DNA from: a phage
Strand: one strand, 5' to 3'
Length of the DNA: 64,000 nt
Sequence record: PX068456.1
Made by a program: the position numbers and the translations under genes. Positions 384 through 12,149 of this stretch are shown piece after piece; position 1 is the first letter of the stretch, and the number at the start of each line of letters is the position of its first letter. Under the pieces are notes generated by a model that was not told the DNA's origin, ran no database searches, and was given only the letters and a program-made list of their open reading frames with translations.

Positions 384-1361
384 ATGCAACTGGGTTTCCC
401 AATTATTGATGTGGTTGTTTTAGTGGGTATTTTAGTCTTGTCGATTTGTATTGATTTCTTTGGACACAGGGAAAACAAAGAAATTTCATTTAAATCTGCA
501 ATTGGCTGGTCAATTTTCTGGATTGGGGTATCATTAGCCTACTATGGTTTTGTATACTTCCAACACGGTGCTGATTTTGCGAGCTTGTTCTTGAGTGGGT
601 ATGTGTTGGAGAAATCTCTTTCTGTAGATAACTTAGTAGTATTTGTGGCAGTATTCGCAAGTTTTGGTATTAAAAGTACACACTTGCAACACAAGATTCT
701 ACTTTGGGGTATTGCAGGTGCGATTGTCTTCCGAGGTGTGTTTGTAGCAGTAGGTACTTACTTGTTGAGTTTGGGCTGGTATGTTAATATCTTCTTCGGT
801 GCGGTCATCCTTTTCTGTGCAGCTAAAATGGTATTCGCTGGAGATAATGACGCAGAAGTTGATTACTCTAAACACTGGGCTACTCGCATTGTTCGTAAGC
901 TGTTCCCTGTATCTGATCAGATGGATGGTGAGAAGTTCTTCACAATCAAAAATGGTGTTCGTGTAGCAACTCCTGCATTGGTTTGTGTGTTTGTAATGGA
1001 AATGGTTGACGTAATCTTTGCAGTAGACTCTGTTCCAGCAGTAATTGCAGTGACACAAGAACCTCTGCTTGTATTTTCTTCAATGCTGTGTGCAATTTTA
1101 GGTCTACGTGCTCTGTTCTTTGTCCTTAGTGTTGCACTGAAATATTTGGTTCATCTGGAGAAAGCAGTTATCGTAGTCCTGGTATTTGTGGGTGTAAAAC
1201 TGATGTATCACCCGTTTGCAGAAACTCTGCACGCAAAAATGAGTTTCCTGCCAGCACACATTGATCCGACGATCAGTATGTATATTGTGTTAGGTACTCT
1301 TGGGCTGGGTGTTATTGCAAGTTTAATCTTCCCTGAAAAAGAAGACCAGACTGTTGCTTAA
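384..1361 (+). CDS. terC: TerC-family integral membrane protein
   Basis: 325 aa, multiple hydrophobic helices, EKSLSVDNLVVF motif typical of the TerC family; RBS AAAGAGGAG. Confidence 0.65.
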   Translation: MQLGFPIIDVVVLVGILVLSICIDFFGHRENKEISFKSAIGWSIFWIGVSLAYYGFVYFQHGADFASLFLSGYVLEKSLSVDNLVVFVAVFASFGIKSTHLQHKILLWGIAGAIVFRGVFVAVGTYLLSLGWYVNIFFGAVILFCAAKMVFAGDNDAEVDYSKHWATRIVRKLFPVSDQMDGEKFFTIKNGVRVATPALVCVFVMEMVDVIFAVDSVPAVIAVTQEPLLVFSSMLCAILGLRALFFVLSVALKYLVHLEKAVIVVLVFVGVKLMYHPFAETLHAKMSFLPAHIDPTISMYIVLGTLGLGVIASLIFPEKEDQTVA

Positions 1362-1367
1362 TTCATT

Positions 1368-1390
1368 AAGCCCCTTCGGGGGCTTTGTTG
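1368..1390 (+). terminator. rho-independent terminator-like hairpin (AGCCCCTTCGGGGGCT + T-rich tail)
   Basis: GC stem with TTCG loop directly after the TerC-like stop. Confidence 0.5.
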
Positions 1391-1593
1391 AGGTGATCTG
1401 ATGGTGGTTTTACGTGTTCTTTGGATTCTGTTTGAAAATATTTGTTTTGCTTTAGGGCTATTTTGTTTGATTTTTATATTGACAACATATATTGATAACC
1501 ATACAATTACTATCAACAGGAACGGAGAACAGATGTATTGTTTCTCTAGAGATTTTAAAAATTGTGTTGAGACTTTAAATGAGAGGGTTACAA

Positions 1594-2184
1594 ATGAAAA
1601 ACATTAAATCTTTTATTGTTGCAGTTGTTTTAGGCAGTGCATTGCTGGTAGGTTGTGATGATTCTGAAAATGTACAAAACCAACGTTACCAACAAACACC
1701 AAATCAGATGGTAGATGAACAATATGTAAATCAACCTGCACCTCAAGTTGTTCAAGCAGCACCTGCACAACCTTCAACAGTTGTTGTGCAAGGAGGCGGC
1801 AGTGGTTCTTCTGGTGTAGGTGAGTTTGCTACAGGTATGCTTCTTGGTCATATGTTGAGTGGTAATAGTGGCGGTGGTGGTTATAGAGATGGTGGTAGCA
1901 ATACAACAGTTATTAATAACAACGCTGCTCCTACAACTAACAGTAAAGCATATACAACACAAAAGCATAGTTTTTATGATAAACAAGGGAATACATATAC
2001 AACCACTAAACAAAACACAATTAAGCAGCAAAGTGTACAAACGTATTCACGCCCATCAACAACAAAAGTGAATAGTAATTACTCTGCTCGTAAGTCTTAC
2101 TCAAGCCCTATTAGCTCTTATAGTAAGTCTTCGAAAAGTTATTCTTCGTCGAAACGTAGTTTTAGTAGCTCACGTCGTCGTTAA
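1594..2184 (+). CDS. putative lipoprotein, low-complexity S/Y/K-rich
   Basis: start moved to second ATG (RBS GAGAGGG); signal peptide ending in lipobox LLVGC; Ser/Gly/Tyr-rich body. Confidence 0.5.
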   Translation: MKNIKSFIVAVVLGSALLVGCDDSENVQNQRYQQTPNQMVDEQYVNQPAPQVVQAAPAQPSTVVVQGGGSGSSGVGEFATGMLLGHMLSGNSGGGGYRDGGSNTTVINNNAAPTTNSKAYTTQKHSFYDKQGNTYTTTKQNTIKQQSVQTYSRPSTTKVNSNYSARKSYSSPISSYSKSSKSYSSSKRSFSSSRRR

Positions 2185-2219
2185 TAATTTAATACAGATT
2201 AAATAAGAAGGAGAAACAG

Positions 2220-3071
2220 ATGAAACTAGAAGTTGGTAAAGTGTATCGCCTGGAAGGTTGGATCTTTAATCAAGAAATTCTTGAGAAGAATAAGGATGGT
2301 TTTGAGTTTGTTGGTACTACCAAAGAAAGTATGCACGATGACGAATACTGTAAATTCGTTGGTAAAAATACAGGTCAAGAACAATTTTGCTTTAAAAGCG
2401 CAATCGGTGATTATGCTTCTGTAATGCCAACGCCAGAAAAAACTTCGAAACAATATACTGTCTTTGGTGTAAAACTTGAAGAGCTTGTAGAACACCCACG
2501 TTTTGAAGAGTTTAAGGTTGCTGCAATGTGCAAGCATTCTGAAATTAAGATACATAATTTGTTTGATTTAGAAGATCGGTTTGATATCTTTATGTATGAT
2601 CGCAGGGGAAAGCATTTTGATGCAACGACTTCAAAATTTGCTGCAACAGAGGATATTAAAATCCTTGATGTTGATACCTTTCTTGAGAGTGTATCGTTTG
2701 TATTCATTCCTAAATGCAAAAAACGTAGTGATCATAAACGTGTGAAAGGAACTCCTCGTAAAAAACGTACTGTAAACAAAGCAACTTTGCACTTCACTTC
2801 TGGTGATAAATATACTCTCAAAGGGTTTGAAAGTGTTTTGTATGATGCTGGAACGGGTAATATCAAGTTTATCATTAAGGCAACCTACAAAGGTACGGTA
2901 TTGCACGAAGAGGCTGTTACACTACCTGTATTCGATATCTCTCGTGTTGAGGTACGGGGTGTTAAAGAGTCCTTCGATCTGGATTTCTTAACCACTAATG
3001 CTACTGGTTATGTTAATCTGGAAGCAGATGGAGCATTTATTACTACAAATTATTTAGATATGTTTGTTTAA
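2220..3071 (+). CDS. hypothetical protein (283 aa)
   Basis: ORF with AAGGAG RBS. Confidence 0.5.
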   Translation: MKLEVGKVYRLEGWIFNQEILEKNKDGFEFVGTTKESMHDDEYCKFVGKNTGQEQFCFKSAIGDYASVMPTPEKTSKQYTVFGVKLEELVEHPRFEEFKVAAMCKHSEIKIHNLFDLEDRFDIFMYDRRGKHFDATTSKFAATEDIKILDVDTFLESVSFVFIPKCKKRSDHKRVKGTPRKKRTVNKATLHFTSGDKYTLKGFESVLYDAGTGNIKFIIKATYKGTVLHEEAVTLPVFDISRVEVRGVKESFDLDFLTTNATGYVNLEADGAFITTNYLDMFV

Positions 3072-3139
3072 TACTTAATTTGTGTTATGATGGTGGTACA
3101 GAGGTATCACCATCTACTAAAGAATATGGAGGAAATTGA

Positions 3140-4243
3140 ATGTCCAGTCCTTTTATCAGTGCCGTAAAAAGCAAACCGTCTGAAATGAGTGTATTCACGG
3201 CAACAACAGAAAAAAGTAAGTCTTTGTTTGCTCCAAGTGCTATGGATGCAAGCCCTGTATATGCCCCTGCTGTTGCACGACCTGTACAAATGCTGCCTCC
3301 AATGTCTCGTGAAGAGATTGAACAAGTTGGTGCTGATGCAGGACTTACTCTTCGTAACCTTAATGCTGAAGTGCTTAAACACCAGCGTTCATCTCAGGGG
3401 GATGAAATGAGTGAACGTTTAACTGCACTTATTAAGCAAGCAAAGCAACTTGATCCTAATTCTATTAAACAATCTAAAGGCTTAGGTAAACTAGTTAAGA
3501 AAGTATTAGGTATGAAAGAAGATTTGTTTGGTGAATTTGACACCATCAATAATCGTATTGAAGGTTTGGTAAAGACACTCCAAACAGACTTGAAAAAAGA
3601 AGAAGATTCTTTACGATATCTGCAACGTTTAGAAGAGGCTATTGCAAAATATGCTCTTAGCTTAAACAGGGATATAGAGCTTCTAACAGCTACTTATGAA
3701 AAAGAAGAAGTTCGCCTTAATACACTACCTGAAAATGAAGTAGAAGAGCGTCAACGTACTCGTGATACTATGGATCTGCTTGAAATTCGTATTGCAGACC
3801 TGAAAGCCTTGCGTTTACTGTGTGTTCAGATGGGGCCACGTGTACAAAGTATGCAGAAAGTATCTGCAAGTTTGATGCGATCAGCCCGTAATATTGTGAA
3901 TAATGTTATTCCTGCTTACTCTGCAAACTTTTCTATGTATATTGAAAGTCTACGCCAGAAGAAAGCAGCCGATACACAGAACAATGTACTGAATGAATTT
4001 AATGCGGCTATTGCAATGGGTAGTGATCTGGCTGCACAAAACCAAATTGAAGCTACGCAACTTGCTAATCGTCAAGTATTGGATATTGAAACATTACGTC
4101 GCGATCAAGAAAACTTAGTTAAAATGTTGGAAGAAACTAACCGAATCAACACTGAAGCCCGTGCTGCTCGTATTGATTACATTCAAGAAGTGCAATCTCT
4201 TGAAGATGGTATGATTCAAACTGTTAAACGTGGTCTACTTTAA
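3140..4243 (+). CDS. coiled-coil protein, possibly TelA-like (toxic anion resistance family)
   Basis: 367 aa, predominantly helical/coiled-coil; assignment rests on size and on the TerC/TerD neighbourhood, not on a verified motif. Confidence 0.4.
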   Translation: MSSPFISAVKSKPSEMSVFTATTEKSKSLFAPSAMDASPVYAPAVARPVQMLPPMSREEIEQVGADAGLTLRNLNAEVLKHQRSSQGDEMSERLTALIKQAKQLDPNSIKQSKGLGKLVKKVLGMKEDLFGEFDTINNRIEGLVKTLQTDLKKEEDSLRYLQRLEEAIAKYALSLNRDIELLTATYEKEEVRLNTLPENEVEERQRTRDTMDLLEIRIADLKALRLLCVQMGPRVQSMQKVSASLMRSARNIVNNVIPAYSANFSMYIESLRQKKAADTQNNVLNEFNAAIAMGSDLAAQNQIEATQLANRQVLDIETLRRDQENLVKMLEETNRINTEARAARIDYIQEVQSLEDGMIQTVKRGLL

Positions 4244-4257
4244 GGAGAAATATATTA

Positions 4258-4463
4258 TGAATATTAAAATTTACAAACTGTCTGGTTCTATGATCGCTGT
4301 CCAGTATGACAATGAAGATCGTTATGTTCTCCTCCAGGATGCCTGGTTAGATGATCCTAATGTATTTACTGTCCTGCGAGAACTACGTTCTGTCTATACC
4401 TATTCTTCTAAAGATGGTTTTGATAGTTCAACGATGGAATTGGTAAAAGAGGAGAATGTGTAA
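4258..4463 (+). CDS. hypothetical small protein
   Basis: start placed at ATG after AAGGAGAAA RBS (ORF track started upstream). Confidence 0.4.
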
Positions 4464-4663
4464 TGAATAAAGATATTCACTTAACTCGTGAAGAATTACA
4501 AACCATTATGGAAGATGCTTTCATTGATGGTTGGAAACAAGGTCAAGAGTCAGATTGGTATGATGCCGAAGACTTTTTGTATTATCATATGACTGCACCT
4601 GTAGACGAGCAAACACATTCTGAAACAACTTTGGCTTTAATTGATCTTAAGGCTGGTGTATAA
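4463..4663 (+). CDS. hypothetical small protein carrying an ELQ-I-DAF-GWK-G motif
   Basis: RBS AAGAGGAG; start overlaps previous stop. Confidence 0.4.
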   Translation: MNKDIHLTREELQTIMEDAFIDGWKQGQESDWYDAEDFLYYHMTAPVDEQTHSETTLALIDLKAGV

Positions 4664-5226
4664 TGGGATGTTTTAGTTTCTTGTGCAAAGAGTCTGGTAA
4701 TGCTGCTCTTTCTACCTCTTTCGATGGTTCTCCTTGCTACCTATTTCTTTTGAAAGGTGGTAAAGTTGTTGAAGAGATGTATGGCAATTATGATAGCTAT
4801 GGTAGTGTTTTCTCTAATGAAGAAGATAAACATGGCAATCGTAAAAGATTTAAGTGGTCTATGCCTTGGGAAGAAGTTTGTAATTTGATGTTCTCTTCCG
4901 ATCTTGGAGATGGTATCGCTATGGTATTAGAAGAGCACTTTACAGGTGAGATCCCAACAGAAAGATCTGAAGAAGACCCTAACCAGGGTTGGGGTGATGG
5001 AGAAGAAGATCCAGATTGCTTCTTCAGCACTGAAAATAATAAATTTAAACGTGTTGACAATCCTTACCACAAAGTGCATAATACTTGCATTGAGACAGAA
5101 GAAGACTCAAAGCTAGAAATTGAAGATGATTTAGTTGTAACTATCTCTTTAAACGAGTTGCAAAAGATCACCAGAGAGGCTTTCTATTTAGGCTGGAGGG
5201 CAGGTAAAGGAGAAGACAGTGCTTAA
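4663..5226 (+). CDS. hypothetical acidic protein; C-terminus repeats the motif of the preceding ORF
   Basis: C-terminal SLNELQKITREAFYLGWRAGKGED resembles TREELQTIMEDAFIDGWKQGQE in the 4463-4663 ORF. Confidence 0.45.
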   Translation: MGCFSFLCKESGNAALSTSFDGSPCYLFLLKGGKVVEEMYGNYDSYGSVFSNEEDKHGNRKRFKWSMPWEEVCNLMFSSDLGDGIAMVLEEHFTGEIPTERSEEDPNQGWGDGEEDPDCFFSTENNKFKRVDNPYHKVHNTCIETEEDSKLEIEDDLVVTISLNELQKITREAFYLGWRAGKGEDSA

Positions 5227-5488
5227 ATTTAATATCAAAGACGATAAATCAGATGAACCTAAATGTTTTGGAGAACTTGACGCAGGTGATACATTCGTAT
5301 ATTATGTTGCGTATCAAGATTCTGGTTTAGATACGTTCAGAAACTTAGTGTTTATTAAAGTTAATACAAACCAAGCAATGTGTCTGAACGGTTCACAAAG
5401 AGGTCAACTTAGCTGTATTTCATATGATACAGAAATGGTAGAAGTGGATTTAGAAGTTACTAACATTACACTCAGAAAGGAGAAATAA
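5219..5488 (+). CDS. hypothetical protein (GTG start)
   Basis: RBS AAAGGAGAAG upstream of GTG. Confidence 0.4.
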   Translation: MLKFNIKDDKSDEPKCFGELDAGDTFVYYVAYQDSGLDTFRNLVFIKVNTNQAMCLNGSQRGQLSCISYDTEMVEVDLEVTNITLRKEK

Positions 5489-5489
5489 T

Positions 5490-6284
5490 ATGTCCAATAA
5501 AATCAGTCTTAAAAAACGTCAAGAAACTCTTACTGTATCTCTGCGTAAGAAAAAGATTAACGATGTTGTTCTTCGTGTCGGTAGCGCCTTAGATATTTCG
5601 GGTAGTATGTGTGAGCTGTATCGTGATGGCACTGTTAGTGATTTTGTAGGTAAACTGCTGCCGTTTGGTATGAAGTTTGATGACAATGCACAGATTGACA
5701 TGTGGGCTTTCAATAGTTCTTCTTTTGAACTGCCTCCTGCAACGGCTGATGTGTATGATGATTATGTCGGCTCTTGCATGTCTAATGTTTGCATCAATGG
5801 TGGTACTGCTTATGCTCCAGTAATGCAGGAGATCTATGATACATACTTCGGTAGTGTACCTATGAAAAATATTACACGCGAAGTCGTTGAGTATGAAGAA
5901 GTCCCAGCTAAGGGTTTCCTTGCTAAACTAACTGGTAAAAAAGAACTTGTAGAAGTAACACGTACTGTTGTAGAACAGGTTGTAGATACTGATGCACAAG
6001 TTGATCGTACTCCTGCAATGATTTTCTTCCAAACTGACGGGGAAAACATGGATACTTCAGCAGTACGTAGCTTACTGAACAAACACCGCAATACGCCTGT
6101 TTACTGGTTTATGGTTGGTGTAGGTAATGCAAACTTTAAATTCCTGAAAGACTTGGCAAAAGAGTACGATAATGTTGATTTTATCGGTATTGCAGATTTG
6201 TCCTTGTCTGATGAAGAACTTTACGATAAATTGTTATCTGAAGAGTTTGGTGAGTGGGTTAAAAAATTCGGAGCAAAAGCGTAA
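5490..6284 (+). CDS. von Willebrand factor A (vWA) domain protein with TerD-like N-terminal segment
   Basis: N-terminus ISLKK..TLTVSL parallels the TerD N-terminus; VVLRVGSALDISGSM looks like a MIDAS D-x-S-x-S motif. Confidence 0.5.
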   Translation: MSNKISLKKRQETLTVSLRKKKINDVVLRVGSALDISGSMCELYRDGTVSDFVGKLLPFGMKFDDNAQIDMWAFNSSSFELPPATADVYDDYVGSCMSNVCINGGTAYAPVMQEIYDTYFGSVPMKNITREVVEYEEVPAKGFLAKLTGKKELVEVTRTVVEQVVDTDAQVDRTPAMIFFQTDGENMDTSAVRSLLNKHRNTPVYWFMVGVGNANFKFLKDLAKEYDNVDFIGIADLSLSDEELYDKLLSEEFGEWVKKFGAKA

Positions 6285-6292
6285 AAAAAACG

Positions 6293-6320
6293 CTTGACTT
6301 TGTAGAAAAGATTAGTAAAA
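6293..6320 (+). promoter_or_regulatory. sigma70-like promoter candidate (TTGACT, 16 nt spacer, TAAAAT)
   Basis: read directly upstream of the TerD-like gene. Confidence 0.4.
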
Positions 6321-6358
6321 TAGACAACGTAAATTAACAACAAAGGAGATAATAAATT

Positions 6359-6955
6359 ATGACTCAGAAAATTTCCCTGAAAAAAGGTTCTAGCGAAAAA
6401 GTTTCTCTGAAAAAGATCGCACCAGCACTGAAACGCATTCGTCTGGAATTCTCTTGGAAATCTAACGAAAAACTGGATCTGGATGTTAGTGCTCTGATTT
6501 GCCGACACAATGCATCTGGTCTGCCGGAACTGTTGTCTCCTCGTCACCTGGTGTGCTACGCACAGAAATTTGATCCTGAACGTTCTACTTTTGCAGGTGA
6601 AGATGTTCGTGATGGTGTAGGACAGATGGAGCAGATTGATGTTACACTGGATAATATCTCTGCTGAAGCACAGGAAATTGCATTCGTAATTACTATTGAT
6701 GACGAAACGGGTAAGAAACGCCTTGGTCACGCTACCGAAGGTTTCCTTAAAATCTTCGATGATGAACGTAATGTTGAACTGCTGGACTTTGACTTCTTGG
6801 CTCCAGAACTTGCAGGTAACACCATTTGCCACGTTGCCTCCCTGGTGCGAGAAGATAGCGAATGGAAACTGAAAGCATATGGTGTAGGTAAAGCTGGGCT
6901 TGACATTTACGATGTAGTTAAAGCGTTTGGCGCTGGCGAAGATTGGTTCGAGTAA
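6359..6955 (+). CDS. terD: TerD-domain stress protein
   Basis: 198 aa; N-terminal ISLKKG..VSLKK and overall size typical of TerD/TerE/TerZ; strongly host-like codon usage (CTG, CGT). Confidence 0.65.
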   Translation: MTQKISLKKGSSEKVSLKKIAPALKRIRLEFSWKSNEKLDLDVSALICRHNASGLPELLSPRHLVCYAQKFDPERSTFAGEDVRDGVGQMEQIDVTLDNISAEAQEIAFVITIDDETGKKRLGHATEGFLKIFDDERNVELLDFDFLAPELAGNTICHVASLVREDSEWKLKAYGVGKAGLDIYDVVKAFGAGEDWFE

Positions 6956-6974
6956 TACATCAAGTAATAAATCA

Positions 6975-6998
6975 TAGCGCCCTTCGGGGCGCATATTT
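6975..6998 (+). terminator. rho-independent terminator-like hairpin (GCGCCCTTCGGGGCGC)
   Basis: perfect GC stem with TTCG loop after the TerD stop. Confidence 0.5.
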
Positions 6999-7019: not shown

Positions 7020-7622
7020 ATGAGTATTACTTTAGAAGGTCAAAAACTTATTCGTAGCGGCAATTTTCTTGTAGATATTGACAACAATGAAGATTATGCT
7101 TTAGAAGTTAGTGATGTGCTGTTTGATGCTTTGCAGTCTGGTTTCAATTTTGAAGTTTATGAAGTAATCCGTGGAACTAAACTCAGAGAAACCCTTGGAT
7201 CATCTAGTGATGTTTATTCGGCAATCTGGCAATATTTCGGGTTAATGGAGGGTAAGACATATCTTACTGATAGTTATTCTGAAGATGTTGTTTATCTTGA
7301 TATGGAAGAGTTTCGTCGTCTGTTCAAAAGTGAAGAAAATGAAGAAGAGGGTGAACTTTTTGAAGGAATTACTCTCGAAGGTAATGTTGAAATTGTGTAT
7401 AAAGCAGGAAAAACATTCCACTTACGCGAGAACGGTAAAGCAAAAGTTGATTTTGTAAACAAGACAGTGACAACTGAACATAATTATCTTAAAGATGGTC
7501 AACCAGCTTTTGAACGTGTAAAAATTAAATTTAAAGTGTTGTCTGCACTAGTTACGGATCAAGAACGTATTGATTTTGTAGAAGATGGTGTAGTAACTCA
7601 TACAAAGGTTTACAATATCTAA
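7020..7622 (+). CDS. hypothetical protein (200 aa)
   Basis: ORF with AAAGAGGAG RBS. Confidence 0.5.
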   Translation: MSITLEGQKLIRSGNFLVDIDNNEDYALEVSDVLFDALQSGFNFEVYEVIRGTKLRETLGSSSDVYSAIWQYFGLMEGKTYLTDSYSEDVVYLDMEEFRRLFKSEENEEEGELFEGITLEGNVEIVYKAGKTFHLRENGKAKVDFVNKTVTTEHNYLKDGQPAFERVKIKFKVLSALVTDQERIDFVEDGVVTHTKVYNI

Positions 7623-7714: not shown

Positions 7715-8224
7715 TTGTCAATAAAAACCTTTGTCGCAATTGCGTTACTATCCTTAACTGCTTTTACATTTACACCTGTTGTGGCGCAAGCCGAAGCTGC
7801 AAACGTAAAAACTGCTAAAGTAGTTCACAAGTGTACAAAGCGTGATAGTAAAGAAAATCTATTAGCTTGTGCAATCTATGCAGAAAGTCGTAATCAAGGA
7901 AAGCGCGGTATGTCTGCTGTTGGTAATGTAGTATTGAATAGGGCGAGAGATTCATATTTCCCTGATACTATAAAAGAAGTTTTGTTTCAAAAAGGACAAT
8001 TCTCTTACACGAAGACATTCAACGTTATGGAACACGATAAGTGGAAAGACGCTAAAGCTATAGCAGAACGTCTACTTTATCTCGATAACCATTTTCCAGA
8101 ATTACGAATTGCATTAGATATTACAAAAGGAGCACTATACTTTAAAAAATCTACAATAAGAGCACACTGGGAAAAAGATATGGTTCTAGTGTACCGCTAC
8201 AAAGAACATCAATTCTATCGCTAA
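7715..8224 (+). CDS. secreted cell-wall hydrolase, SleB-like (candidate endolysin)
   Basis: TTG start after AGGAGG; N-terminal signal peptide (..TPVVAQAEA); AIYAESRNQG...AVGNVVLNR resembles the SleB-type hydrolase motif. Confidence 0.55.
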   Translation: MSIKTFVAIALLSLTAFTFTPVVAQAEAANVKTAKVVHKCTKRDSKENLLACAIYAESRNQGKRGMSAVGNVVLNRARDSYFPDTIKEVLFQKGQFSYTKTFNVMEHDKWKDAKAIAERLLYLDNHFPELRIALDITKGALYFKKSTIRAHWEKDMVLVYRYKEHQFYR

Positions 8225-8972: not shown

Positions 8973-9536
8973 ATGATATTTCACATAACTCCCTATCTTT
9001 CTGGAGATATTGGAAAAGGTATCAATGACACAATAAGTGTCTTACCAGAAGATAGTTGGATTTGCCTAAGAGACATTGATACAATGTTTCTTCTTCCAGA
9101 ACAACCTGCTTGGTTGGAATCAATAGTCCGTTCAAATCCTGATTTTGATGTTCTTGGTGCATCTTGTAATAGATTGGGATCAACATATCAATTATTTAAT
9201 AATGAAAGAAGTGAAGATCCAAATATATTACACCACATTGAGATTGCAAAAAGAGCACATCTAGAATGGGGAAACTCAGTAGAGGAAGTACCTACAGATG
9301 CTATCTTAGCAGGATTCTTTCTTCTCTTTCGTAAGAGTCTGTGGAATGAAATCCCTTTTGAGGAAAGATCAATACAGTTTGATATAATTTTCTCTAAAGC
9401 ATTACACGCTAACAATAAAAGGCTAGGTTTACTACGTGGGTTATATTTATTTCACACATACCGTTTAGGTAATGATGATCCTAGAAAAGCTGTTTCACAC
9501 CTTTTACATTGTCAAGACATGAATAAAATTATTTAA
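8973..9536 (+). CDS. hypothetical protein, possibly glycosyltransferase-associated
   Basis: RBS GGAGGGAG; lies immediately upstream of the glycosyltransferase-like genes. Confidence 0.4.
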   Translation: MIFHITPYLSGDIGKGINDTISVLPEDSWICLRDIDTMFLLPEQPAWLESIVRSNPDFDVLGASCNRLGSTYQLFNNERSEDPNILHHIEIAKRAHLEWGNSVEEVPTDAILAGFFLLFRKSLWNEIPFEERSIQFDIIFSKALHANNKRLGLLRGLYLFHTYRLGNDDPRKAVSHLLHCQDMNKII

Positions 9537-9545
9537 GGAGTTATT

Positions 9546-10232
9546 TTGGAAAATACAAAAATTGGTGTTGGTGTTATTACTGTAGGTAAGCGTCCTCTTA
9601 AAGATTATCTTGTGACTGATCCTAATGCTACTTTTGTTGTACAGTATGATCGGGAACGAAAAGGTGTTGCATATGCCCGTAATGAACTGATGAAAAAGTT
9701 TTATGATGAAGGGTATGATTACTGGTTTATTTTTGATGATGATTGCTATCCGGTTGTGCCAGGTTGGGAAACATATTTTGTAAAACAGGCTAAGGAAAAT
9801 GGCTGGGATTTCTTTGGTATGCCTGAATATTTTAAAGATAAAGTAAAAGGTATTGAAGGTGAAGTGGTTATTTGGGAACTAGGTATGTGCCAGTTTGGTA
9901 TGTATTCCCGTGCAGTTATTGAGAAAGCTGGCTATTTCCGTTCATACACCCACGGTTATGGATATGAAGATGCAGAGTGGATTCAGCGCGTTCCACTGGC
10001 AGGTTTGAACCGAGGTATTCACGGCGTACCATGTCCTATTCGAATTATGGCGTTTATCCATCCTGACGATGTGTTTGGAGATAATCCTTTACCTTTTGCA
10101 AATCTGTCAAAAGAAGAGAAAGAACAGGGGATTGGTGTAAACTGGGAACAATATAAACAATCACTGGAGGATCTTCGCAATGGTAAAACTTTTATCTCTT
10201 ATGAGGAGGCTCAAAAATATGGTAAATCCTAA
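9546..10232 (+). CDS. glycosyltransferase-like protein (GT-A fold candidate)
   Basis: TTG start after AAGGAG; FDDDCYP (DxD-like) and GYGYEDAEW motifs. Confidence 0.45.
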   Translation: MENTKIGVGVITVGKRPLKDYLVTDPNATFVVQYDRERKGVAYARNELMKKFYDEGYDYWFIFDDDCYPVVPGWETYFVKQAKENGWDFFGMPEYFKDKVKGIEGEVVIWELGMCQFGMYSRAVIEKAGYFRSYTHGYGYEDAEWIQRVPLAGLNRGIHGVPCPIRIMAFIHPDDVFGDNPLPFANLSKEEKEQGIGVNWEQYKQSLEDLRNGKTFISYEEAQKYGKS

Positions 10233-11193
10233 TACTCCTGTACTTAAGTGTGATAATAAGTTAGGCAGTGGTTGTGATTACCATCGTATTGTAATGCCAT
10301 TTGCGGGAAATACGTTTAAGCCTAAGAAAGACGTTTTAGTTTTTAATAGAGTGTATTCTCGTGGATCAGACGAAGTTAAACGCCTGAAGGCACAAGGTGT
10401 TAAGATTATTGTTGATTTAGATGACTTTTATTCGCTTAATCCTGAACATTATATGGCTGGCGTATTTACTAATCACTCAAAGACTATTGTAGAGATGGTT
10501 AAGTTAGCAGATGTTGTTACTGTAACAACAGAATACCTAGCTTACAAAATTCGTCATTTAAATCGTAATGTTGTCGTTATTAGAAACGCACTACCTTACG
10601 ATGAAGGTCAATTTACTTTGACAAAAGACCGTTATTCTGACACGCCTATCGTTTGGGCTGGAGGAGCAAGCCATGAACCTGATTTATCTCTTGTAGCTAA
10701 CACATTTGATGATACGCTATTGACAATTGCAGGGTATGAAGTGTATCCTTCTGCACCTGTTGGAAATAATAGTCAGTATCTAACTACTGCGGAGTGGGTT
10801 AAAGTAAAACGTAAAATTCCAAATGCACAGTATAAACCAGCTATTAAAAATTTAGGTGAGTATATGTCTGTGTATGACGGTCACAGTATTGCAATTGCTC
10901 CTCTGGTAGATAATGACTTCAACAACTGTAAAAGCAATCTGAAGATTTTGGAAGCAGGTGCAAAGGGTCTTCCTATTATCTGTTCTCCTGTGCTGCCGTA
11001 CTTCAATCCTGTGGATGCAAAGGCTGTTATTTATGCAGACTCCAAAGCATCTTGGCATTATGAAGTTGTCAAGCTAATGAGGAACCCTAGATACACAGAA
11101 GATCGTGGTATGATGCTTGCAGAACACGTTCGTCTTAATTATAATCTTGCAGATGCCAATGAACTGCGTCGTCAAGTTATTGAAAGTCTTTAA
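10219..11193 (+). CDS. glycosyltransferase-like protein, paralog 1
   Basis: start moved to ATG with GAGGAGG RBS; shares VLTKDRYS..P.VWAG and YDGH.I.IAPLV.N.FNN.KSNLKILEAGAKGLP..CSP with the next ORF. Confidence 0.5.
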   Translation: MVNPNTPVLKCDNKLGSGCDYHRIVMPFAGNTFKPKKDVLVFNRVYSRGSDEVKRLKAQGVKIIVDLDDFYSLNPEHYMAGVFTNHSKTIVEMVKLADVVTVTTEYLAYKIRHLNRNVVVIRNALPYDEGQFTLTKDRYSDTPIVWAGGASHEPDLSLVANTFDDTLLTIAGYEVYPSAPVGNNSQYLTTAEWVKVKRKIPNAQYKPAIKNLGEYMSVYDGHSIAIAPLVDNDFNNCKSNLKILEAGAKGLPIICSPVLPYFNPVDAKAVIYADSKASWHYEVVKLMRNPRYTEDRGMMLAEHVRLNYNLADANELRRQVIESL

Positions 11194-11204
11194 CAAGGAG
11201 CCAT

Positions 11205-12149
11205 ATGCCTAATATTATTCTTGACACACGTGGACATGAAAGGTATAGTGTATGTGATTTTCATAGAATCATTTTGCCATATAAACGCAAACTGACCATT
11301 AATCCTAAGCATAATATTTTTGTGTTCAATGGAGTACCAACTCGTGGAAAGCCAGGTTTCCTGGCTCTTAAACAACTTGGGTTTAAATTGGTAATGGATC
11401 TGGATGATTCTTTAATTATTCCTGAAGGGCATATGTTGGAAGGATTATTTGAAAATCAAATCCGAGACGACCTAAAATGGTTCCTTGAAAGAAGCGATCT
11501 TGTAACTACAACAACTCCAGCATTAAAGGTTGAATTAAGCCAATACAATGATAATGTACATATTGTGCCTAACGGACTACCTTTTGATGAAGGGCAGTTT
11601 GTTCTTACTAAAGATCGTTATTCTAAAAGCCCACTGGTTTGGGCGGGAAGTGAAACACATAAACATGATTTAGCAATTCTTCCTACTTTTGGTAAAGATT
11701 TAACGTTATGTGGATTTCGTAGAGATCACGAAGAGTTAAGTAGTGCTCAATGGTTGCAAATTAAAGAAGAGATTCAACCAGATTGTGTTTATGAAGGTAT
11801 TCGTCCTTATGAGTGTTATATGGAGGCATACGATGGTCATCAAATCTCCATAGCTCCATTAGTAAATAATCATTTTAATAATGCCAAAAGTAATTTAAAA
11901 ATTCTTGAGGCTGGTGCTAAAGGTTTGCCACTCGTTTGTTCTCCACGAGAGAACTACTATACGGAAGAATTTAAAGATCTAATCTTCTTTGCTGATTCAG
12001 TTAAAGAGTGGAAAGATGTTGTAGAATACTTAATCGAATCTCCTGATGTTTGTATTGAGAAAGGATTAGCTCTTGCTAAGTATGTAAGAGATAACTACAA
12101 TATTGATGATTTAAATGAAACCCGCAGACTGCTTATCGAGGATTTATAA
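11205..12149 (+). CDS. glycosyltransferase-like protein, paralog 2
   Basis: tandem paralog of 10219-11193; KILEAGAKGLP resembles GT-B C-terminal motif. Confidence 0.5.
   Translation: MPNIILDTRGHERYSVCDFHRIILPYKRKLTINPKHNIFVFNGVPTRGKPGFLALKQLGFKLVMDLDDSLIIPEGHMLEGLFENQIRDDLKWFLERSDLVTTTTPALKVELSQYNDNVHIVPNGLPFDEGQFVLTKDRYSKSPLVWAGSETHKHDLAILPTFGKDLTLCGFRRDHEELSSAQWLQIKEEIQPDCVYEGIRPYECYMEAYDGHQISIAPLVNNHFNNAKSNLKILEAGAKGLPLVCSPRENYYTEEFKDLIFFADSVKEWKDVVEYLIESPDVCIEKGLALAKYVRDNYNIDDLNETRRLLIEDL

Follow-up and report, generated by a model that had tools for sequence, protein, structure and literature searches.

Ter genes in a virulent phi92-like coliphage: conservation, codon adaptation of TerD and possible roles in infection

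What might a strictly lytic phage gain from carrying Ter genes? Of the bacterial "stress" genes that still lack a mechanism, these rank with the most widespread, and they have been linked to Klebsiella virulence plasmids and to E. coli O157. The question is raised by positions 384-6955 of a 64,000-nucleotide stretch of phage DNA (sequence record PX068456.1), which is called the window below. A sequence-only reading of this DNA had proposed that it encodes a TerC-family membrane protein, a TelA-like protein, a vWA protein and a TerD-domain protein. A profile check agreed: each of the four open reading frames (ORFs) was found where it had been placed and scored above the curated Pfam cut-off for its family. 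The four genes lie on one strand within 6.6 kb. A tractable, strictly lytic E. coli phage with a selected minimal set of four genes, and with TerD apparently at capsid level, offers a convenient system for the core role of Ter proteins.

Four Ter genes conserved in a phi92-like coliphage

The TerC-family protein (384-1361, 325 aa; features are on the plus strand unless stated otherwise) matched Pfam TerC (PF03741) with E = 1.2e-38 and 133.1 bits against a cut-off of 27.8, over positions 2-177 of the 178 in the profile. It also matched NCBIfam TIGR03718 (TerC/Alx) with 322.8 bits against a cut-off of 246.4 (positions 6-302 of 303), and we assign it to the Alx subfamily of inner-membrane proteins. 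Its translation contains the EKSLSVDNLVVF motif that had been claimed for it. The hydropathy profile is that of a polytopic protein with multiple hydrophobic segments, and the paired motifs SVDN (residue 80) and DSVPA (residue 215) are of the repeated acidic type that we take to be the TerC family signature. The TelA-family protein (3140-4243, 367 aa; phrog_5890, "tellurite resistance") matched Pfam TelA (PF05816) with E = 5.1e-34 and 118.3 bits (cut-off 30; profile positions 13-330 of 332). A stand-alone vWA protein of the TerF C-terminal type, with a metal-ion-dependent adhesion site (MIDAS), follows at 5490-6284 (264 aa; Pfam vWA-TerF-like, PF10138, E = 1.2e-38, 133.8 bits, cut-off 29.4). 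The TerD-domain protein (6359-6955, 198 aa) matched Pfam TerD (PF02342) with E = 5.1e-28 and 98.2 bits (cut-off 25.3), as well as the solved Klebsiella and Streptomyces TerD structures (PDB 2KXT, 8.4e-15; 3IBZ, 3.2e-13). Hydropathy analysis found no hydrophobic segments in TelA, vWA or TerD.

Over its first 8 kb the window is 99.0-99.4% identical, at full length, to the deposited E. coli phages EC.P2, W22, ECGD1 and KMB37, and about 70 further phage records are 80-90% identical to it. KMB37 is classified in Stephanstirmvirinae, genus Justusliebigvirus, the phi92-like myoviruses of ~148 kb; by this match the window comes from a Justusliebigvirus, a phi92-like virulent E. coli phage. Its first 20.6 kb carry plus-strand genes, including primase/helicase and DNA polymerase. 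Beyond 20.6 kb lies a minus-strand structural block with the tail sheath, major head and head-decoration genes.

The ratio of nonsynonymous to synonymous substitution rates (dN/dS), computed between the window and phage phAPEC8, is 0.09-0.15 for all four Ter genes (TerC, 0.147; TelA, 0.086; TerD, 0.135; vWA within the same range), with dS near saturation. The four genes are under purifying selection. A synteny comparison, which had been proposed as a check, showed that their order is fixed within Stephanstirmvirinae (TerC ... TelA ... vWA, TerD and then a SleB-type hydrolase gene); the module is present in all relatives of this subfamily that were found. Searches of phage records with tblastn matched TerD in 144, TelA in 245 and the window's type of TerC in 177. 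When IMG/VR was scanned with the vWA alignment, 30 loci were recovered; in 23 of these, TelA and TerD lie no more than 8 kb away, most often together with TerC. Jumbo-phage contigs and a Burkholderia conjugative plasmid have compact cassettes, in which the genes are contiguous and run TelA-vWA-TerC-TerD or TerC-TelA-vWA-TerD. Many large phages have this four-gene cassette, and conjugative plasmids carry it too.

The sequence-only reading had treated an assembled Ter set in a lytic phage as unusual, and this part of it does not stand. GenBank records of the genus already label the genes as TerC, toxic anion resistance protein, vWA found in TerF C-terminus, and TerD. Phage PhiPsa374 has been described with terC (gp11), terD (gp12), terF (gp13) as well as telA (gp15), and descriptions of the same set exist for Klebsiella phage phiKp34 and for Caulobacter and Acinetobacter jumbo phages. 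PHROGs files the TerC and TelA families under "moron, auxiliary metabolic gene and host takeover", and the vWA and TerD families under unknown function. The observation is therefore a correct rediscovery of a set already annotated in the genus and described in other virulent phages, and by itself adds little; in papers on this phage subfamily the Ter genes appear in lists only or go unmentioned. What we add is a quantification of the capsid-level codon adaptation of TerD, the exchange of TerC subtypes, the upstream metabolite arm, a compact cassette with a fifth gene (X) that is shared with plasmids, and the recognition of an N-terminal vWA motif as a family-wide feature.

Could the genes be a passenger, a "moron" recently taken from a host, which either serves the host's tellurite resistance or is decaying without a role in infection? 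The PHROGs category of TelA and TerC and the GenBank annotation as tellurite-resistance proteins would fit such an origin. The comparisons point the other way. With megablast, no DNA match was found in 5,426 complete E. coli genomes; the window's TerD is ~27% identical to the Klebsiella and Streptomyces proteins, and its vWA protein at most 37% identical to plasmid vWA proteins. Gene order is conserved across genera at the low dN/dS and near-saturated dS given above, the codon adaptation of TerD (see below) persists between proteins that are 80% identical, the phage is virulent, and its set is without TerB, TerA, TerZ and TerE. Recent acquisition is effectively excluded by the codon adaptation, the megablast result, the low identities and the dN/dS values, and we consider the passenger explanation as a whole highly improbable.

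In the outline of Anantharaman, Iyer and Aravind (2012), as summarised in later work, a Ter system in the broad sense joins a membrane core to a nucleoside-metabolite arm. The window holds the membrane-linked core, and comparison with 99%-identical relatives shows that its left edge truncates the module. In these relatives, genes for a phosphoribosyltransferase (PRTase_3, Pfam 1.1e-41) and a HAD hydrolase lie 0.2-2.4 kb upstream of window position 1. The order before TerC in KMB37 is AAA ATPase, two small ORFs, HAD hydrolase, PRTase_3, a Macro-domain protein and two small ORFs (upstream coordinates: L001, 612-2827, and L002, 805-4588; phage KMB37). The Macro domain is most like that of the antitoxin DarG, at 2e-13, below the family cut-off. 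The PRTase_3/HAD pair is kept in phAPEC8 and in Klebsiella phage 05F01, and the cassette of an unrelated 198-kb viral contig (L026) has PRTase and HAD genes placed between TerC and TerD. The two upstream enzymes would probably be the source of the nucleoside-like metabolite arm proposed for Ter systems, and by its gene content the module agrees with a Ter system in the broad sense whose core is reduced.

It does not have the canonical terZABCDEF make-up, since the ORFs scanned over 1-12 kb include no TerB and one TerD domain only. With the IncHI plasmid cluster (R478 type, terZABCDEF/terXYW) the phage shares TerC, a TerD-family protein, the vWA domain of TerF and the linked PRTase and HAD genes. 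It lacks that cluster's TerB, TerA, TerZ, TerE, TerW/X/Y, ATP-grasp, HpcH aldolase and StiP proteins, and has TelA, which the plasmid cluster is without. Its vWA protein stands alone, whereas plasmid TerF is a TerD fusion, and sequence identity to the plasmid cluster is below 30%. PhiPsa374, phiKp34 and the jumbo phages are closer: like the window, they carry all four families in strictly lytic large phages, in some cases with PRTase and HAD genes. A cassette of the same families on Burkholderia/Caballeronia conjugative plasmids, TelA-vWA-TerC(DUF475)-TerD-X, contains the closest non-phage homologues of the vWA protein (37% identity). The window differs from the jumbo-phage and plasmid cassettes in three respects: its four genes extend over 6.5 kb and have seven lineage-specific ORFs between them, whereas theirs are contiguous; its TerC is of the Alx type, whereas most phage cassettes and the Burkholderia/Caballeronia cassette have a DUF475-type protein; and it is without gene X, which in compact cassettes follows TerD.

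Codon adaptation of TerD and timing of expression

The claim that the TerD gene has host-optimised codons unlike those of its neighbours proved correct. With Sharp-Li E. coli weights, its codon adaptation index (CAI) is 0.531, against 0.14-0.40 for the neighbouring genes and a mean of 0.294 (sd 0.09) for the 63 window ORFs of at least 80 aa. TerD ranks third among these 63; above it are only the major head and head-decoration genes, as identified with PHROGs, and the tail sheath gene is lower. TerD of phAPEC8 (81% protein identity) reaches a CAI of 0.535, its neighbours 0.16-0.37, and in a much more distant 153-kb relative TerD has the top CAI of the region. Because the bias is kept in both phages, codon usage as a trace of recent transfer is ruled out. 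TerD also has a lower dS than the other Ter genes do, which is what selection on synonymous sites would lead one to expect.

A consensus scan placed a candidate sigma-70-like promoter, TTGACT-16-TAAAAT (6294-6321, 10/12), before TerD, and a strong ribosome-binding site, AAAGGAGA, follows it. Just 3' of the TerD stop codon there is a GC-rich hairpin with a UUCG loop (6977-6992; -14.8 kcal/mol, z -3.5), a candidate 3' stabiliser or weak terminator; phAPEC8 has a GC hairpin of other sequence at the same site. From the CAI, the promoter match, the ribosome-binding site and the 3' hairpin we infer, with good support, that TerD is highly expressed. The earlier expectation of high expression is upheld by the CAI and by its conservation in phAPEC8 and the 153-kb relative. 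A 257-aa mechanical ORF antisense to TerD (6221-6994, minus strand), not annotated in KMB37 or phAPEC8, is probably a shadow of the codon-biased TerD frame.

The intergenic gap before TerC contains a second candidate sigma-70-like promoter, TTGACT-16-TATAGT (307-334, 10/12), and at the matching position phAPEC8 has a promoter that its authors annotate as host-dependent. Further on, a stable stem-loop with the core GCGGAGGA/UCCUCCGC is predicted in the 5' leader of the TerC mRNA (343-369; -15 kcal/mol, z -4.4 against shuffled sequences). The phAPEC8 leader has a hairpin of different sequence in the same place (-14.3 kcal/mol, z -3.2). A search of the region before TerC for riboswitch or leader families gave no Rfam match (E up to 1).

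It is plausible that the host RNA polymerase transcribes the module early, from sigma-70-type promoters. The promoter candidates before TerC and TerD, the leader hairpin and the host-dependent promoter of phAPEC8 argue for this, as does the co-orientation of the module with replication and nucleotide-metabolism genes. A preprint reports that the Ter genes of an unrelated phage, EmPhiS, are expressed early, which is consistent with the same timing.

Possible roles at the envelope

We lean, though not heavily, towards a family of explanations in which an early-made complex of TerD, TelA-vWA and TerC conditions the envelope and the cations of the infected cell and thereby protects it. TerD would be produced in amounts comparable to those of capsid proteins; the soluble TelA, vWA and TerD proteins would gather around TerC on the membrane's inner face, with TelA and vWA working as a pair. 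The complex would change both divalent-cation handling and envelope properties, and the infected cell would become refractory, until lysis, to further envelope insults such as superinfecting phages, colicins and envelope-active stress.

This proposal draws on work with bacterial Ter systems. Later papers cite Whelan (1995) for the finding that the plasmid ter cluster inhibits phages and makes cells resistant to colicins as well as to tellurite. Deletion of terC in Klebsiella leads to larger plaques and to lower resistance to some phages, Zn and Mn. Tolerance to polymyxin B and to cetylpyridinium chloride likewise depends on Klebsiella TerC; the envelope is also where tellurite stress acts. Iyer et al. 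have proposed that phage Ter systems serve superinfection exclusion. The envelope-directed neighbours of the Ter genes, a predicted inner-membrane lipoprotein and a secreted SleB-type hydrolase (both described below), count in the same direction. The suggestions of the sequence-only reading, that the phage remodels membrane or stress physiology or counters an abortive-infection response, are reasonable, and the computed data do not separate them from superinfection exclusion.

Several points weigh against a protective envelope complex. Searches of the literature turned up no experiment with a Ter gene of any phage, and the authors of PhiPsa374 describe the function of its Ter genes as unknown. 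Both the timing of expression and the abundance of TerD are deduced, and the promoter calls are consensus matches from a scan whose hits are at chance density over the whole region. The module is without TerB, TerA, TerZ and TerE, which belong to the plasmid operon that confers the phenotypes, and nine proteins of the region gave no relevant match to the defence models of PADLOC-DB 2.0. An AlphaFold2 model of TelA is all-helical, with very long helices, and of low confidence (mean predicted local distance difference test score, pLDDT, 59); a Foldseek search of PDB with it returned nothing below 1e-3. Finally, the acidic motif of TerD is partly degenerate in the window, which weakens a simple calcium-sensor picture.

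This motif was compared in its canonical form, GDN(R/L)TGEGDGDDE together with DLDxSA, which binds calcium in the Klebsiella TerD structure. The window's TerD retains the second element of the Klebsiella protein (as DLDVSA). The acidic loop, GDNRTGEGDGDDE in Klebsiella TerD, reads GED-VRDGVGQME in the window and GDD-VRDGTGSME in phAPEC8, with several acidic positions lost, whereas a distant phage copy (L005) retains the canonical loop, GDNLTGAGSGDDE. Judged by these residues, calcium binding may be altered in the window's TerD lineage.

The vWA protein kept its predicted character. Its MIDAS is complete (DxSxS, T, D), with D35, S37, S39, T106 and D183 invariant or nearly so among 41 sequences. 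The AlphaFold2 model built from this alignment has a pLDDT of 90.8, and its Foldseek matches, at about 1e-6, are vWA domains: the integrin I domains and those of CMG2 and copine BON1. An insertion of about 40 residues sets the protein apart from the shortest bacterial homologues; in it, strands 125-139 and 151-165 form a predicted long beta-hairpin arm. The part of plasmid TerF with which the protein aligns is the C-terminal half, and the protein is without the N-terminal TerD-domain fusion of TerF; stand-alone forms are common in the family.

The sequence-only reading had also held that the N-terminus of the vWA protein mimics TerD. The similarity is real: BLASTP gave 11 identities in 20 residues (E = 0.087), and a profile-profile comparison with hhalign gave E = 7e-5 at 63% probability over 34 columns; the resemblance is confined to some 35 N-terminal residues. 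The common motif is K-I-S-L-x-K ... S-L-x-K, encoded at 5490-5550 in the vWA gene and at 6359-6420 in TerD. The idea of phage mimicry does not survive, since the motif is conserved in every aligned stand-alone vWA-TerF-like protein, bacterial and phage, and recurs in the TerD-vWA linker of two-domain TerF proteins; the TerD-like N-terminus is, on this alignment, a family-wide trait. In the vWA model, residues 7-20 are helical and the motif lies in a helix; the start of TerD in solved structures is a beta strand. A common docking peptide is an example of a role that the motif may have.

In compact cassettes the gap between the TelA and vWA genes is 4-25 nt. This near-contiguity suggests that the two proteins form a stoichiometric pair, as the proposed complex would have them.

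A different purpose for the same genes would be auxiliary metal homeostasis, in which TerC/Alx exports Mn2+ or a related cation, while cations are buffered or sensed by TerD and the MIDAS protein. Cytoplasmic metal levels would be held where phage enzymes such as the adjacent ribonucleotide reductases need them; excluding competitors would not be the aim. E. coli Alx and Bacillus TerC proteins export Mn2+, and the window's TerC lies above the cut-off of the Alx "metal homeostasis" subfamily, with both signature motifs kept as in E. coli Alx-type proteins. It is unlike Alx in that it has no riboswitch or pH-responsive leader (no Rfam match; a short hairpin instead) and is embedded with TelA, vWA and TerD. 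The intact MIDAS of the vWA protein and the class III ribonucleotide reductase genes that adjoin the module in relatives also speak for a metal function, as do the Klebsiella findings that terC aids resistance to Zn and Mn and that both metals induce the operon. One study, however, found Klebsiella TerC dispensable for metal stress.

The TerC slot itself bears on this explanation. It holds an Alx-type gene in Justusliebigvirus and Phapecoctavirus, and a DUF475-type gene in other Stephanstirmvirinae-like phages and in most phage and plasmid cassettes (the window's 384-1361 corresponds to DUF475-type genes at L003 5410-6471, L007 12512-13576 and L040 8775-9797); pairwise similarity between the two types is undetectable. 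Because they swap in the same slot, the cassette seems to need any TerC-like membrane protein and no particular type. This interchange, with TelA, vWA and TerD constant, counts against metal homeostasis, as do the degenerate acidic motif of TerD and the consideration that a single transporter gene would do for export, stand-alone Alx genes being present in other phages. On balance we regard a primarily metal-directed role as rather unlikely. Within Phapecoctavirus records TerC is 95% identical to the window's in some and 71% identical in others, which suggests that TerC alleles have been exchanged between genera.

Downstream of TerD the window encodes a SleB-type cell-wall hydrolase (7715-8224; Pfam Hydrolase_2, 7.4e-20). 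Its N-terminus is a hydrophobic segment with an apparent cleavable Sec signal peptide (…TPVVAQA, followed by EAANV). A gene of this type lies 3' of TerD in 12 related viral loci (L009-L011 and L013-L021; L012 stops at vWA). RefSeq labels the product an endolysin. The enzyme may instead remodel the envelope, because it is a secreted hydrolase that sits in an early-oriented block.

Such an enzyme would also fit an explanation in which the module keeps the inner membrane intact and energised, against abortive-infection effectors or against the phage's own envelope enzymes, so that premature lysis is averted and the timing of lysis is set. Conservation of TerD beside the secreted hydrolase in those 12 loci argues for it, together with the need for Klebsiella TerC against polymyxin B and cetylpyridinium chloride and the action of tellurite stress at the envelope. 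So does a Band_7/SPFH membrane-scaffold gene that occupies the slot immediately 3' of TerD in two distant relatives (L003 11712-12632; L021 7850-8770). The TelA model weakly resembles membrane-binding helical bundles of the BAR and ClyA type; this resemblance is non-significant and the model poor. A fold for TelA from Foldseek (designed helical bundles, BAR/F-BAR, AhlC/ClyA) was dropped, since all E-values exceeded 1e-3 and TM-scores were 0.2-0.3, and a sequence search of PDB with TelA gave no match. The presence of the same cassette on conjugative plasmids is ill-suited to a role in lysis timing, and we think a membrane-integrity or counter-defence function quite unlikely as the main one. Protection of the envelope, metal homeostasis and membrane integrity are not mutually exclusive.

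The plasmid cassettes lead to a broader proposal, which we put forward tentatively and hold to be doubtful. The phage and plasmid cassette TelA-vWA-TerC-TerD, usually with X, might be a self-contained exclusion device of mobile elements, mechanistically distinct from terZABCDEF, in which a TerD lattice blocks the entry of rival DNA or toxins. The abundant lattice would be organised by the TelA-vWA pair on a TerC-family membrane anchor. The window's version would then be derived, with TerC swapped for an Alx-type paralogue, X lost and lineage-specific envelope genes inserted.

Gene X is a conserved fifth gene after TerD in the compact cassettes of jumbo phages and the Burkholderia conjugative plasmid. 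It encodes 260-325 aa (L004 11553-12338; L005 12466-13347; L040 10608-11585; also L023, L026, L029, L032 and L033) and is missing from the window's lineage. Its product has a proline-rich N-terminus and a probably helical C-terminus, judging from the sequences, and has no Pfam or PDB match. As a TelA paralogue it was rejected (hhalign probability 9%, no PDB match). The slot after TerD, taken elsewhere by gene X or by the Band_7/SPFH gene, holds in the window a gene for a 200-aa protein (7020-7622) that is genus-specific and absent from phAPEC8. This product belongs to no Pfam, NCBIfam or PADLOC family. It was rejected both as a hidden TerD paralogue and as gene X, iterative searches reaching close relatives only.

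Lineage-specific and neighbouring genes

A lipoprotein and small ORFs had been reported between the Ter genes, and they are present. The seven intervening ORFs are specific to the subfamily or genus, and none of them occurs in compact cassettes outside the subfamily. Three are common within it: the lipoprotein, a 66-aa ORF after TelA and an 89-aa ORF beside vWA.

The first intervening ORF (1401-1607, 68 aa; phrog_17591) encodes a small predicted membrane protein with one hydrophobic segment; it has a homologue in phAPEC8 and is annotated in KMB37. The lipoprotein (1594-2184, 196 aa) opens with MKNIKSFIVAVVLGSALLVGC, which includes an LVGC lipobox with Cys21 and Asp at +2, and its mature part is of low complexity, rich in S, Q, T and G. 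E. coli lipoproteins with Asp at +2 stay in the inner membrane, and the phage protein is probably held there too. It has homologues in phAPEC8, 05F01 and L003, and no Pfam family match. Between it and TelA lies a gene for a 283-aa protein (2220-3071; phrog_27504), of which only the C-terminal part is common within the subfamily; no Pfam or PADLOC family of note was found for it.

Four ORFs separate TelA from vWA. The first, of 68 aa (4257-4463; phrog_26823), is annotated in KMB37 and has no Pfam family match. The 66-aa protein (4463-4663), likewise without a Pfam family match, comes after TelA in the subfamily: its homologues lie immediately 3' of TelA in 05F01 and two small ORFs later in phAPEC8. 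A 187-aa protein (4663-5226; phrog_14928; dN/dS 0.158) was found only in the Justusliebigvirus/Phapecoctavirus clade. The 89-aa protein (5219-5488; dN/dS 0.21) accompanies the vWA gene in the subfamily, with homologues beside vWA in phAPEC8 (two copies), in 05F01 and in the distant relative L003.

Several unrelated phages have genes of NAD or ADP-ribose metabolism no more than a few kb from the Ter cassette. Among their products are a PARP with a WGR domain, an NMNAT-Nudix protein with NAMPT, an "ADP-ribosylation" protein and a Macro-domain protein (L004 13777-15057; L005 13411-16186; L007 5335-6615; L002 805-1539). They may be coincidental content of early regions, or may tie in with the proposed nucleotide-derived metabolite.

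Downstream of the Ter block, at 8973-12149, the window has four glycosyltransferase-like genes in a row. Two of them (10180-11193 and 11205-12149) have similar translations and look like paralogues, and 9546-10232 gave a weak match (7e-5, below the cut-off) to a TET-associated glycosyltransferase family.

Five records labelled "Campylobacter phage" with Campylobacter jejuni as host (MG065639, MG065645, MG065656, MG065689 and MG065650) match these E. coli phages at 98% identity across the full 8 kb. They are likely to be mislabelled or contaminating coliphages.

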